This document shows, in pieces, positions 2,072 through 13,247 of a DNA stretch of 14,933 bases (the stretch's first letter is position 1; each line of letters begins with the position of its first letter). The notes under the pieces are model-generated. The model was not told the DNA's origin. It was given only the letters and a program-made list of their open reading frames with translations, and did not search any database. Source of the stretch: a virus; the UHGV virus genome UHGV-0050054. One strand, written 5' to 3'. Both the position numbers and the translations under genes were made by a program.

Positions 2072-2865
2072 TGGTTGCCTCCTTTGCGAAGCTGGGCGGC
2101 GATGTCTTCGAGTACACCATCAGCGAACGAGCGATCGAAATCGCCTTCCGGCGCATTAGCCATAAACTCAGTAGAGGTAAGAATCATCCTGGCAATATCC
2201 GCTGCGTTCTTCGCAGTATCATCAATAAAACCAGCATCCCAGGCAGCCAGCATTCTGTTCGCCACAAAGTAAGCTCCCTCCTTGCGTGCTTCAGTCTTCA
2301 CTTCAGCCAGGAAAGCGTCGGTGGCCGGGGTTTTGTTATCTGACTCCAGCCACTGGTTGTAGTAATAATCGAACATGCCAGTAGGATAACCACATCCGCT
2401 GTGCACGTGGTCTTTCATAGCAGAACCACACATGCAGTAGTCATTGTCAGTATTACTAATGATGTCGATAAGTTGCTGTGTCCGTTGCTTCAACATCGCA
2501 TTCTCCGCCGCCAGCGCAGAAAACTTCTCGTGCGCCAACTTAACGGCTGCATCTGCCTGCCTCATTGCCTCCATTGCTTTCTCGTTATCAGTTGCTAGCG
2601 CCGCGCACTTGGCTTCAAGTTCGGCAAACTTATCAGCCACTGATTTCGGCCCGTCTTCGCCGCAAGCCTGCATCATTGATGACTCCCATGCTCTTTCTGC
2701 TGCTTCCGATAGCTTTAATTGCACTTCAAGTAATGCAATCTTTGATTCAAGCTCACCAAATTTACGCACCAGATATTCAGCGTTTGTTTCGTTAACCTTT
2801 AAGTCTCGCGGGATGCATTTTCCTTTCAGAAATCCATCCATCTCAATTAGTGACATTTGTTTCAT
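2068..2865 (-). CDS. Hypothetical protein (265 aa from ATG 2865; track gives a GTG start at 2883)
   Basis: Track ORF 2068..2883. ATG at 2865 overlaps the stop of the small ORF 2862..3026 (ATGA), suggesting coupling. No family recognised. Confidence 0.6.
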
Positions 2866-3026
2866 TTCTTCCCACTCCGCCACATCGCATTCAGATATTT
2901 GTTTTGATTCACTGATGGAAAATAATTTCTCTTAAGCAATTCCTCTCTTGATGGCATTGGCTTTACGCGTTGGCGAATAATCATTTCTGCCGGAAGAATG
3001 CCGGGATTGTATGCAAGTCCTCTCAT
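2862..3026 (-). CDS. Small ORF (54 aa) not present in the supplied track
   Basis: ATG at 3026 with AGAGGA RBS 7 nt upstream; manual translation [26 protein letters not shown]...; stop overlaps the next start. Fills an otherwise empty gap in the operon. Confidence 0.35.
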
Positions 3027-3042
3027 GGTAAATTCCTCTTTG

Positions 3043-3357
3043 TTAATTTATTCGTATGCCTGCTCTTTCTTCATCGAGTTTTTTTAGCTTGTATCGCATA
3101 GCTCTTACTGAATAAATTGAGCGGCAGGTTGCAATTGCTATTTCTTCTGCGGAGAACTTACCGAAAAGTGATACTTCGGCTCTTGTCCATCGTCTTCCAC
3201 GAAGTCGGCTAACAATGTCAGCTCCAATCCTTGTTGCTTTCGCCATTACTGCTTTTTCAGTCCTTTCCAGTTTTTCAGCGATAACTTCAACTGGCATTGT
3301 CGCCGCTACTTCGCGCAAGAAATCGACTTCCCATTTCTCCCATGGAGTCTTTTTCAT
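3043..3357 (-). CDS. Hypothetical protein (104 aa), possibly DNA-binding
   Basis: Complete ORF; two segments look HTH-like ([22 protein letters not shown] and [22 protein letters not shown]). Weak RBS. Confidence 0.5.
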
Positions 3358-3368
3358 AGGCGATACCG

Positions 3369-3851
3369 TTATTTGATAAGAAGTGAAGGTTTCCCAACTT
3401 TGAGTTGAGCGCCGGGGATATTTATTCCTGCTTTTAGTTGGTGTTTGATTGCCAGTTTGTCGGCTTTAATTGTCGTTTCAAACTCAACGTATTCAGGAGG
3501 AAGGGCGCTTGAGTCGATTATTTCTACAATTTCTGACGGTTTGCGGATTGTTACCTGGTGAATACCTGCTCTAATCTTTTTCTTGCCTACCATTTCAAGC
3601 GATGACGCTATATACGCCATAATGCTGTCAATCTTATTTTGAATTACTGCGGCTCGCTCATTTAGTGACTTTGCCTCTTCCTTGAGGCGTTCAGCATAAC
3701 CAGTTTCATTTTTAATGACGGAAAGAAGTTGCTCTATTTTATCGGTAAATTCTCCTTCCATGCCTTCTATTGTGTCAGCAATCATCTCTGGTTCTAAATC
3801 TGAATCCATCAATTTTGCGTATTCATTGGCAATTTCATATAGTTTGCTCAC
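3369..3851 (-). CDS. Phage protein, siphovirus Gp157-like (tentative); GTG start at 3851
   Basis: Track ORF 3369..3857; GTG at 3851 has GGAGG 6 nt upstream. Size and position directly downstream of recT fit the Gp157 family that often accompanies RecT/Erf; family call from memory. Confidence 0.6.
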   Translation of the reverse strand: MSKLYEIANEYAKLMDSDLEPEMIADTIEGMEGEFTDKIEQLLSVIKNETGYAERLKEEAKSLNERAAVIQNKIDSIMAYIASSLEMVGKKKIRAGIHQVTIRKPSEIVEIIDSSALPPEYVEFETTIKADKLAIKHQLKAGINIPGAQLKVGKPSLLIK

Positions 3852-7615: not shown

Positions 7616-7804
7616 TTAACTATCATCAATACATGGCACTTTATTCCAGTCGATATCGTTTTTATTGTCGTCCCACATGTCTTTGTTTTTGTATTTCTCG
7701 CTACATCCTAGGCAAATGTTGTATGGCCTACCGATAAGGTTTAACGAAATACGTTGCATTTCATTTGATTCAAACATGTATCCACAGAACTGACATTTAT
7801 GCAT
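7616..7804 (-). CDS. Small Cys-rich protein (62 aa), putative zinc ribbon
   Basis: CxxC at residues 4-7 and 31-34; starts 4 nt after the N stop with GAGGGGTGAG upstream; low-GC like the adjacent 156-aa gene. Confidence 0.55.
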   Translation of the reverse strand: MHKCQFCGYMFESNEMQRISLNLIGRPYNICLGCSEKYKNKDMWDDNKNDIDWNKVPCIDDS

Positions 7805-7807
7805 ATC

Positions 7808-8140
7808 TCACCCCTCATACAGTAGCTTACTGCCTAATTTCATTTTCTGGCGACCAACACAAGTCACACCCATTTCACTGCGTGGCTTGCTGTACCATGT
7901 GCGCTGATTCTTGCGCTCAATACGTTGCAGGTTGCTTTCAATCTGTTCGTGGTATTCAGCCAGCACCGTAAGGTCTATCGGATTCAGTGCGCTTTCTACT
8001 CGTGATTTAGGCTTTCGAGTCAGCGAGAGAATTTTGCGGGTGTCTGGCTTTGCGCTTACCCCAACCAACAGGGGATTTGCTGCTTTCCATTGAGCCTGTT
8101 TCTCTGCGCGACGTTCGCGGCGGCGTGTTTGTGCATCCAT
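7808..8140 (-). CDS. N: Antitermination protein N
   Basis: 110-aa product MDAQTRRRERRAEKQAQWKAANPLLVGVSAKP... matches lambda N as recalled over most of its length, including the Arg-rich N-terminus; AGGAG RBS; nutL upstream. Confidence 0.9.
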   Translation of the reverse strand: MDAQTRRRERRAEKQAQWKAANPLLVGVSAKPDTRKILSLTRKPKSRVESALNPIDLTVLAEYHEQIESNLQRIERKNQRTWYSKPRSEMGVTCVGRQKMKLGSKLLYEG

Positions 8141-8165
8141 CTGGATTCTCCTGTCAGTTAGCTTT

Positions 8166-8385
8166 GGTGGTGTGGTGGCTGGTAGTCTAGCTCCAGCTTG
8201 TTGAGTCTCATTCGGAGGGGTATAACCGGCACCCCAGCGATTTTTCCATGCGACAACGTGCGCGTTATGGCGGCCTTATCGCCCGCGGCTCCCCATCTCG
8301 TCCACGCTATTGCTAGCGTTGGGAGCGCTTCACCGCTCAACAGTAGGTAAGCACTTGCCAGTGACTAGCTGGCTTCACCACACCC
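8166..8385 (-). promoter_or_regulatory. N-leader long-range inverted repeat enclosing a GC-rich core of about 170 nt
   Basis: Arms near 8167..8193 and 8360..8384 are complementary (perfect 9-bp GGTGTGGTG/CACCACACC core plus imperfect extension). Position matches the lambda N-leader hairpin region. Confidence 0.4.
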
Positions 8386-8408
8386 CAAAGCCTTCTGCTT
8401 TGAATGCT

Positions 8409-8439
8409 GCCCTTCTTCAGGGCTTAATTTTTAAGAGCA
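8409..8439 (-). promoter_or_regulatory. nutL: nutL (boxA + boxB)
   Basis: Minus strand reads GCTCTTAA-AAATTAA-GCCCTGAAGAAGGGC: boxB is the canonical lambda hairpin, boxA-like element 7 nt upstream. Confidence 0.85.
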
Positions 8440-8478
8440 TCACCTTCATGGTGGTTAGTGCGTCCTGCTGATGGCTAA

Positions 8479-8507
8479 ATAGTACGATTTGTACTTTATC
8501 GAGTCAA
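8479..8507 (-). promoter_or_regulatory. pL-like promoter with overlapping operator
   Basis: Minus strand TTGACT (8502..8507), 17-nt spacer, TACTAT (8479..8484); palindrome AGTAC-N5-GTACT (8481..8495) overlaps the spacer and -10. Confidence 0.6.
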
Positions 8508-8553
8508 TACAAAATGTTCTAAATATGGTTGGTTTTTTATAACGCTTTGTATT
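8481..8553. promoter_or_regulatory. Putative OL operators (two sites of form A[G/T][T/A]AC-N5-GTAyT)
   Basis: AGTACgatttGTACT at 8481..8495 and ATAACgctttGTATT at 8539..8553, 58 bp apart; the same motif family recurs at OR. Confidence 0.4.
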
Positions 8554-8632: not shown

Positions 8633-9292
8633 TTAACTAAATGTCTCTTCAGGCCACTGGCTGGCGATAACTTTCCCTACTACGGAACAGCTATCATTGC
8701 ATGGAATCATTGGATATTGCTGGTTTAGTGGCTGTAGGAACACCTGACCGCTATCCCTGATCAGTTTCTTGAAGGTAAACTCGTCACCACCAAGTCTGGC
8801 TATGCAGAAATCACCTGGCTCAACAGCCTGCTCAGGGTCAACGAGAATTAACATCCCGTCAGGAAAGCTTGGCTTGGATCCTGTTGGCGCGGTCATGGAA
8901 TTACCTTCAACTTCAAGCCAGAACGCACAATCACTGGCTTTTTTGGTTGTGCTGACCCATCTCTCCGCATCACCTTTGGTAAAGGTTCTAAGCTCAGGCG
9001 AGAACATCCCGGCCTGAACATGAGAAAAAACAGGGTACTCATATTGTTTTTTAACGGGGGCAGATGAGTATTCGCCAACAGGTGAAAATGTACCGTCGTG
9101 GTTGAATGAGACGTTATCAATACCAAGGTATTTAAACACCACACCAATCTCGTCAAGAGATGGATGACGAGATCCGCGCAACCAGTGACCAATTCCACCC
9201 TGCGTCATACCAAGCTCTTCAGCTAACTTCTCTTGAGTTATGCCGAGCTCTTTCATTCTGGATCTAGCCAGTTCATACCATTTCATTTTCAT
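8633..9292 (-). CDS. cI: CI-type prophage repressor (N-terminal HTH, C-terminal LexA/S24-like domain)
   Basis: C-terminal half ([38 protein letters not shown]...[28 protein letters not shown]...[11 protein letters not shown]) matches lambda CI as recalled, apart from a few substitutions; the N-terminal HTH differs from lambda. Track ORF begins at a TTG (9334); ATG 9292 or 9286 is more likely. Confidence 0.9.
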
Positions 9293-9301
9293 ACCCTTAT
9301 T

Positions 9302-9375
9302 ATTACGCTCTGTACTAAAACCATCCATGCACAAGATGTATTTTTTGTTTGCATTCTAAAAGTACATATCGTATT
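9302..9375. promoter_or_regulatory. Putative OR operators
   Basis: ATTACgctctGTACT at 9302..9316 and AGTACatatcGTATT at 9361..9375, 60 bp apart; the second overlaps the PR spacer and -10. Confidence 0.4.
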
Positions 9376-12731: not shown

Positions 12732-12899
12732 GTGAGTGAACCATCTAAACATGCGCAGTATTGCCCATTCTGCCAGCGTCATATTGAGCCTGAGCGAGAT
12801 GATTTAGGCGATCTGTACATTACACATGAAGGCGGATTTATTTATGTGCACGACGAAGTACTACACGATGACGATTACACATTTACGCCACTTAACTAA
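12732..12899 (+). CDS. Small hypothetical protein (about 55 aa, GTG start)
   Basis: Track ORF starts at TTG 12711; GTG 12732 has GAGGTGA 5 nt upstream. Confidence 0.45.
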   Translation: MSEPSKHAQYCPFCQRHIEPERDDLGDLYITHEGGFIYVHDEVLHDDDYTFTPLN

Positions 12900-12926
12900 C
12901 ATCCAGCACGCTGACGGAGAGGAATG

Positions 12927-13247
12927 ATGAGTAACGAAAATGGATTAATTGAATGGTTGCAAAGCGGCGAATATCTTCCTGGCTTTCTACGCGACTTTCA
13001 CGACCAGAAAGATGTGTTTAAGGCTATGCACGACACAATTGGGAATGCTAACGAAAACGGTAATGCCAGAGATGGGCATATCTATGTTATTGACACCTTT
13101 CTTTGGTACATGGCCCGATGCGGTTACACCTTGCAGAAATCAAGGAAAAATGTCGAATTTAAAGATATGCAGGATGACATTGAGCGCAGCAAAGAATGGC
13201 GGCGTGAGGCATTTTCTCGTGTTATTTCAGAACAGCACAAAGTCTAG
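12927..13247 (+). CDS. Hypothetical nin-region protein (106 aa)
   Basis: Complete ORF; GGAG about 7 nt before ATG 12927. No family recognised. Confidence 0.6.
   Translation: MSNENGLIEWLQSGEYLPGFLRDFHDQKDVFKAMHDTIGNANENGNARDGHIYVIDTFLWYMARCGYTLQKSRKNVEFKDMQDDIERSKEWRREAFSRVISEQHKV

Follow-up and report, generated by a model that had tools for sequence, protein, structure and literature searches.

The leader of the N gene of phage lambda is a textbook example of how autoregulation of translation can be coupled to RNase III. To our knowledge, the lambda-type N leader has been dissected in essentially one phage. Steege et al. are said to have found in 1987 that this leader is cut after CUUUGG on the 5′ strand of its helix and after the ACC of ACCAAAG on the 3′ strand, with a stagger of 2 nt.

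According to the passages of PMC5725501 that cite Wilson (1997, 2002), N and the Nus factors at nutL repress the translation of N about 200 nt downstream. In the same passages, and in the part of PMC5371410 that cites Steege (1987), the lambda leader is described as highly structured, with RNase III modulating the repression by N. A sequence-only reading of the locus described here had taken this lambda interval to hold an RNase III-processed leader hairpin that controls N translation, and these sources agree with it as regards a structured, RNase III-linked leader. The boxA of lambda reads CGCUCUUA (PMC2724277), boxC is defined in lambdoid nut sites as the alternating GU sequence that comes after boxB (PMC6614797), and a weak terminator, tL0, accompanies lambda nutL (PMC7315355).

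Here we describe an N leader from the virus genome UHGV-0050054. By the window we mean the whole 14,933-nt stretch of DNA that was analysed. It corresponds to the early region of a coliphage that is lambdoid, P22-like and mosaic, and any single sequenced phage covers 50% of it at most. The leader in it is a known kind of element in an undescribed enlarged form, and carries the largest of the previously uncatalogued, interchangeable apical cassettes that we found.

RESULTS

A lambda-type N leader with an enlarged tip

The order of genes and signals in this part of the window is as follows, in the direction of transcription:

8633-9334, minus strand: CI-type repressor gene (HTH_3 and Peptidase_S24 domains)
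8602-8581, minus strand: terminator between the CI-type repressor gene and pL
8479-8507, minus strand: pL promoter, with -35 TTGACT at 8507-8502 and -10 TACTAT at 8484-8479, from a promoter scan and alignment with the annotated pL and +1 of lambda and HK544
about 8472, minus strand: start of the pL transcript, ATCAGCAGG, as in lambda
8432-8439, minus strand: nutL boxA, UGCUCUUA, read from the sequence, at the position of the boxA annotated in HK544 (EF120455)
8409-8423, minus strand: nutL boxB hairpin, GCCCUGAAGAAGGGC, identical to the boxB of lambda nutL and annotated as boxB in HK544
8385-8397, minus strand: 5′ strand of the proximal helix (CAG..GG followed by CUUUGG), from folds and from columns that are invariant among the lambda-type leaders compared
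8376-8384, minus strand: distal 5′ arm, GGUGUGGUG, which is the GU-rich boxC of nutL, from the repeat search, folds and covariation
8178-8375, minus strand: interior of the apical insert (class E), 198 nt, about 58% GC, no function detected
8169-8177, minus strand: distal 3′ arm, CACCACACC, pairing with 8384-8376 in a perfect 9-bp core
8155-8168, minus strand: bulged A (8168) and 3′ strand of the proximal helix (CCAAAG at 8167-8162, CU at 8161-8160, CUG at 8157-8155)
8148-8152, minus strand: Shine-Dalgarno sequence of N, AGGAG, 7 nt before the AUG and 3 nt past the helix, identical to lambda
7808-8140, minus strand: gene for the N antitermination protein, 110 aa (Pfam PF11438, N36, E = 3.8e-23)

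The reading frame at 7808-8140 is called N in at least 19 phage records. It is followed by a 62-aa ORF (7616-7804, minus strand) that starts 4 nt past the N stop and has a CxxC motif (MHKCQFCGYMFESNEMQ...) and no match in Pfam. With boxB at 8423-8409, the helix at 8397-8155, the Shine-Dalgarno sequence at 8152-8148 and the AUG at 8140, the interval is indeed the N leader between nutL and the N start, as had been proposed from the sequence.

The long complementary arms noted at the outset, a perfect 9-bp core with an imperfect extension, were recovered by a repeat search as an inverted repeat (8164-8177 and 8376-8389, arms of 14 nt, 86% complementary, 198 nt apart). On the minus strand, which is the strand transcribed from pL, these arms belong to an interrupted helix of 20 bp in which 8397-8376 pairs with 8177-8155, between the nutL boxB and the ribosome-binding site of N. 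Folding predicts 20 pairs, one bulge and one 2x2 internal loop, or about two helical turns. Below the 9-bp core CUUUGG (8390-8385) pairs with CCAAAG (8167-8162), and a lower extension of GG with CU and CAG with CUG joins 8397-8391 to 8161-8155. The helix encloses 198 nt (8375-8178), more than the roughly 170 nt first estimated; the enclosed segment is GC-rich, as had been remarked, with a GC content of 0.56-0.62 inside against 0.33-0.51 in the flanks.

Folded whole, the 268 nt of leader reach -105 kcal/mol (z = -4.1 against dinucleotide shuffles), and the opposite strand of the leader folds equally well. The 198-nt interior alone gives -68.0 kcal/mol, compared with -66.0 +/- 4.1 in dinucleotide shuffles (z = -0.49). 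Stable structure beyond chance, which the sequence-only reading had staked itself on, is thus borne out for the element as a whole and not for its interior. Since the interior without the helix is no more stable than shuffled sequence, the non-random feature of the leader is its closing helix and not what the helix contains.

Identity between the window and lambda is about 97% on either side of the insert, from pL as far as CUUUG and from CAAAG onward into N, and these stretches take in boxB, the helix base and the ribosome-binding site of N. Between CUUUG and CAAAG there is no similarity beyond the ends of the arms. This segment was suspected from the start of being longer than, and different from, that of lambda. 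It is both: CUUUG to CAAAG spans 229 nt in the window and 119 nt in lambda, the interiors are dissimilar, and an alignment of the two leaders finds neither the same length nor the same sequence. The whole leader measures 332 nt in the window compared with 222 nt in lambda. An intrinsic terminator like tL0 was looked for in the window leader and rejected, as a terminator scan of the minus strand at 8140-8408 found none.

The further suggestion that this could be a variant processing site did not hold up. CUUUGG and ACCAAAG, together with the sequence flanking them on both sides, are identical to lambda, the differences being confined to the distal 9 bp and the apical insert. Across 31 distinct leaders, that of lambda among them, the CUUUGG and ACCAAAG columns show little or no variation. 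By analogy with lambda, RNase III cutting of the window helix is predicted in its proximal strands, 8385-8397 and 8155-8168. Carried over to the window, the lambda cut positions would presumably fall at 8385|8384 and 8166|8165, with a helix of about 11 bp above them and the release of a fragment of about 219 nt.

Compensatory changes in the closing helix

Predicted folds return the same helix in all 36 of the arm haplotypes. Across 31 distinct sequences 91.6% of the cells are paired, against 79.7% in shuffles, and when the two arms are slid out of register pairing lies at 30-44%. Among the same 31 sequences half of the pairs (10 of 20) have been altered on both sides. The covariation score is 0.299, compared with 0.103, and was reached by none of 500 shuffles. 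Variants of the arms include GGUGUGGUG/CACCACACC, GAUUGGAUG/CAUCCAAUC, GUAGGUCAG/CUGACCUAC and AGUAGCGCG/CGCGUUACU. In the lambda class, which is more diverse with a pi of about 0.05, the sole double change falls in the closing helix.

Among lambda-type leaders neither CUUUGG/CCAAAG nor the lower stem varies. The lower stem is rebuilt from different flanking sequence in the lambda-type, the Stx-type and a third context.

Many unrelated inserts at one leader site

Related loci were gathered by homology to N, and also by the invariant 3′ flank, both in IMG/VR and in a set with a single genome for each species. The roughly 270 loci carry about 29 unrelated inserts at the same leader site, with 29-229 nt from CUUUG to CAAAG. 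The IMG/VR loci account for 24 unrelated interior classes, and about five further classes come from Serratia, Pseudescherichia, Pantoea, Yokenella and one other Enterobacteriaceae genome. The shortest insert is a bare hairpin of 29 nt from Pantoea; the longest is that of the window, class E, at 229 nt, and the runner-up among these loci has 159 nt. Comparison of the classes with blastn-short found similarity in the stem ends alone, plus one match of 16 nt between classes E and D that includes the last hairpin of the window's insert. The boundaries of the classes are sharp, and the cassettes are far more uniform than their flanks.

Three phages, Louie, Dewey and vB_EcoP-683R2, have an immunity region and N of the window's type and yet carry different cassettes. 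Louie (133 nt), Dewey (71 nt) and lambda (119 nt) share the flanks of the window and have unrelated interiors, and the immunity region is common to Louie and Dewey. Class E is carried, as in the window, by Sf6, HK544, HK446, HK633, mEp043, mEp213 and Sf101.

Homologues of the 198-nt interior of class E were sought with blastn (word size 11) in 50,697 phage records and 5,426 E. coli genomes. The interior is 100% identical in 19 phage records, and 98-100% identical when about 60 of the 5,426 E. coli genomes are included. All matches in these two sets were such copies, with no divergent homologue among them, and in the phage collection the matches were class E leaders only. Because the copies are 98-100% identical, the blastn matches do not lend themselves to a covariation analysis of the interior. 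Nucleotide diversity (pi) in the same loci is about 0.009 in the class E interior, about 0.046 in the adjacent N gene and 0.107 in the 90 nt upstream. The uniformity of class E fits either recent spread or constraint, and could reflect purifying selection instead of youth.

The class E interior is unannotated in 17 of the 19 phage records; of the other two, one bears a hypothetical protein called automatically and one lies only within a broad 'immunity region' feature. A literature search for leader variation in Sf6, HK or mEp phages, or for prophage sRNAs at the N-leader site, found nothing relevant.

Two observations from this survey concern other loci. Some phages with the 71-nt cassette (L009 and L027, at about 1040-1200) have an extra 43-codon ORF (MNNEALKEMIAKLLEDARRIQEVEPNAGTQSRIDEAMKLLKGE) with its own Shine-Dalgarno sequence, between the leader helix and N. 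About 20 genome assemblies from non-enteric bacteria (L205-L239, including Marinifilum, Limosilactobacillus, Nocardioides, Shewanella, Desulfovibrio, Pseudomonas and others) contain a lambda-class N leader; many of these are on tiny or low-coverage contigs and are most likely contamination with lambda DNA.

Class E in other leaders

A metagenome scan with the 5′ junction of class E as the query turned up the same 229-nt unit, unchanged and with CUUUGG...CCAAAG as its exact limits, in two further settings. In one of these it stands behind a different boxB, GCGCUGACAAAGCGC, and ahead of a 127-aa N protein of the Stx1a-phage type. The 127-aa protein is unrelated in sequence to the N of the window; it is annotated as N in TL-2011a and as an antitermination protein in mEp506, and its position is unannotated in the Stx1a-converting phage records listed. 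In the other setting (L256) class E lies behind an rrn-like boxA and ahead of a 39-codon ORF.

There is also a locus, L064 (about 900-1200), in which class E and a lambda-type N occur behind a different boxB (GCGCUGAAAAAGCGC) and different operators. Therefore, the class E cassette is linked neither to nut specificity nor to immunity type.

Some leaders have been rearranged. On the metagenome contig L253 (about 12767-13200) class E is followed in tandem by class C, ahead of an N of the Stx-phage type, and the two cassettes are separated by the first 13 nt of an N gene fused to a boxB tail; this is either a relic of unequal recombination between two leaders or a chimeric assembly. Prophage breakpoints inside leader cassettes were seen in L258 (about 2844-3500), L101, L082/L160 and H99 (E. 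coli P276M, 503215-503305). In L258 class E is truncated after GGGCGATAA and runs into an integrase-like ORF, while in L101, L082 and H99 unrelated coding sequence is joined to the 3′ half of a class E or class C cassette, in H99 under the annotation 'packaged DNA stabilization protein'.

In the Stx-type context the loci L252 and L262 have CCAAAG-UGAA-CUUUGG just upstream of the helix. The base of the 5′ arm could therefore form a local 6-bp hairpin that competes with the long-range helix, and this hairpin might act as a folding switch.

Tests for function inside the insert

The predicted local hairpins of the interior include 8373-8357, 8197-8178 and one with a GCAA tetraloop. Rfam, including its tRNA and tmRNA models RF00005 and RF00023, gave no match at gathering scores over the whole window, and nothing relevant at E <= 10 over 8100-8520, where the sole match was a chance one over boxB. 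ARAGORN called no tRNA or tmRNA genes in the window, in Sf6 or in six related loci examined, and the GTTCRA T-loop motif is absent from class E. A promoter and terminator scan within the insert found neither. Three ORFs of the insert had no match in PHROGs or Pfam, and a search with its 68-codon frame against 5.8 billion proteins returned only near-identical ORF calls. Complementarity between the insert and the rest of the window, sought as antisense targets, is never longer than 10 nt.

Measured against dinucleotide shuffles, interior stability is not significant in any of 24 classes save two tiny perfect hairpins. Pooling 12 variants of class E gives 20 variable sites, of which 8 are unpaired, 7 break a pair, 5 form a wobble and none is compensatory; 60% of the variable sites are at positions predicted to be paired, against 62% expected. 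With variants as uniform as these, a lack of surplus MFE stability and of covariation counts only weakly against function. The idea that the insert embeds a small RNA, floated in the sequence-only reading, finds no positive evidence in the Rfam and tRNA/tmRNA searches, the interior z-score of -0.49 or the 12 variants. Positive evidence for the insert as an independent small RNA is lacking, and the apical 198 nt are a replaceable cassette without detectable constraint.

DISCUSSION

The closing helix and its tip

We think it probable that the element is a leader helix of the lambda type, serving RNase III processing and N autoregulation, with a tolerated and swappable stuffer at its apex. The mechanism that we propose follows published lambda work. 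The helix, with boxC as its 5′ arm and its 3′ arm just upstream of the Shine-Dalgarno sequence of N, would bring the N/Nus-modified RNA polymerase that is tethered to nutL beside the ribosome-binding site of N, where N would then repress its own translation. RNase III would cut both strands in the invariant CUUUGG/CCAAAG, severing nutL from the N start and relieving the repression. We suggest that the tethered nut RNA keeps boxC near the polymerase until the 3′ arm emerges; a tethered leader arm that awaits its partner has been proposed for the leader-trailer helix of 16S rRNA (PMC4807359).

As the two arms are what matters in such a scheme, the length and sequence of the loop would be free, and because they are free the tip may serve as a 'safe harbour' in which unrelated inserts are gathered and exchanged. 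That said, a neutral stuffer does not obviously explain why inserts of 198 nt persist while 29 nt suffice. The sharp bounds and the uniformity of the cassette classes, together with the tRNA-like cassette described below, also speak against dismissing the insert as plain junk.

Our comparison suggests that selection acts only on the two arms and on the CUUUGG/CCAAAG base. The roughly 90 nt enclosed in the lambda leader would then be one of about 30 interchangeable fillers that have been exchanged between unrelated N/nut systems, including that of the Stx-phage type. This predicts that the tip is dispensable and that the distal arm tolerates compensated changes. For annotators, the class E segment is leader RNA that has gone unrecognised in all 19 phage records and is sometimes mis-called as a hypothetical protein.

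Alternative explanations

The insert might instead be cargo. On this reading, which we regard as possible though unlikely, the helix serves as a socket for excision, and RNase III frees from it an RNA of about 219 nt (about 8384-8166), capped by the 9-bp terminal helix and acting in trans as a decoy, sponge or tRNA mimic. The order of parts, a nut site (boxA/boxB/boxC), a long helix and an enclosed RNA, parallels that of the rrn operons, in which a nut-like site precedes the 16S rRNA that is excised (PMC4807359, PMC6614797). The cassettes are sharply bounded units, very uniform within a class, that move between unrelated N systems, and one of them, from locus L146, scores 34.8 bits on the Rfam tRNA model (gathering score 29) and is called tRNA-like by ARAGORN. 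Of the 29 classes, 4 contain a hairpin resembling a T-arm, in which a stem of 5 bp carries a GTTCRA loop, against 0.92 expected (P about 0.015). The last hairpin of the window's insert (8197-8178) has the stem GCUGG/CCAGC in common with the T-arm-like hairpin of class D, though it has no T-loop. Against a cargo, the class E interior shows neither a match in Rfam or ARAGORN, nor excess stability, compensatory variation or a T-loop motif, and has no complementarity above 10 nt to the rest of the window. Rearranged prophages apart, class E lay at the leader site wherever its flanks were retrieved, and in Pantoea phages a 29-nt hairpin suffices. A broader form of the idea, which draws on these parallels and which we hold to be more doubtful again, is that the leader helix beside nutL in N-type phages would be a general socket for the excision of structured accessory RNAs by RNase III. 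Its alternative payloads would number about 30, with tRNA-like ones among them, and the window's RNA of about 219 nt would be a new trans-acting ncRNA. If this were true, the window RNA might act as a decoy, for instance of a host nuclease or a defence system, or as a mimic that engages tRNA enzymes.

The tRNA-like sequence of L146 (370-450, minus strand of the locus, on an IMG/VR contig) is enclosed by the helix, with the boxC stem as its acceptor and a canonical D-arm and T-arm; it is typed by ARAGORN as tRNA-Pro(agg), the anticodon arm being aberrant. The four classes with T-arm-like hairpins are L075, L166, L235 and L146, and in three of them the 7-nt loop reads UUCGACU, UUCAAGU or UUCGAUU. 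In L075 and L146 this hairpin directly adjoins the 3′ arm of the closing helix.

The remaining explanations give the insert a role in cis, an origin as a mobile element, or a coding function. A fold responding to a ligand, temperature or protein could control the closing helix and thereby tune the translation or processing of N. The insert is placed where alternative folding would govern formation of the helix, an alternative pairing of 8193-8201 with 8364-8372 is available, and in the centroid structure the central part of the insert has no defined fold. We nevertheless judge such a sensor to be very unlikely, given that Rfam holds no matching riboswitch or thermometer family, that the insert has no signal of structural conservation, and that some 29 unrelated sequences, down to 29 nt, occupy the same site, which argues against a specific sensor being required. 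With its small size, sharp boundaries, terminal inverted repeats and three different flanking contexts, the insert also resembles a MITE-like element of 229 bp with imperfect 15-bp terminal inverted repeats that landed in the leader by chance. It is, however, never dispersed: the median is one copy per positive E. coli genome (60 of 5,426), no target-site duplication is visible, and apart from rearranged prophages the copies whose flanks were retrieved, from phage, viral and metagenome loci, are at the leader position. CUUUGG/CCAAAG, moreover, belongs to the site and not to the insert, because it is common to all other cassette classes and to lambda. We have rejected a MITE or dispersed repeat of the ERIC or Correia kind on the single-copy median and on the leader context found wherever flanks were retrieved, and give the chance insertion of a mobile element only a very slim probability. 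Slimmer still is that of a leader peptide or small protein, encoded by a TTG-initiated ORF of 60 codons (8340-8158, minus strand) or by plus-strand ORFs inside the insert. There is an open frame of 60-68 codons, and some automated annotations call a hypothetical protein here, but frames of this length are not unusual in GC-rich sequence, the ORF has neither an ATG nor a Shine-Dalgarno sequence, and the PHROG, Pfam and protein searches given above returned nothing except near-identical ORF calls. In addition, the variant L026 has a frameshifting deletion of 1 nt that breaks the sole long ORF. A protein-coding gene or leader peptide was accordingly rejected for want of a start signal and of homologues, and on the L026 frameshift.

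Comparison with known systems

The closest relative of the window's element, read as a leader helix with a swappable tip, is the N-leader helix of lambda. The window's element matches it in position and architecture, in pL, boxA, boxB, Shine-Dalgarno sequence and N start, and in the base CAG..GGCUUUGG / CCAAAGCU..CUG with its bulged A. The two differ in the distal arm, which is one compensated step apart (GGUGUGGUG/CACCACACC in the window, GGUGUGUG/CACACACC in lambda), and in the enclosed sequence, which in the window is unrelated and 110 nt longer.

A second comparison is with the 16S rRNA leader-trailer helix. In the rrn operons the enclosed RNA is a functional rRNA, whereas the 198 nt enclosed in the window give no indication of a function and are followed downstream by an mRNA. 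What the two systems share is a Nus-binding nut site with a GU-rich boxC as the upstream arm, and a long-range RNase III helix that tolerates a long enclosed RNA (PMC4807359, PMC6614797, PMC8632103).
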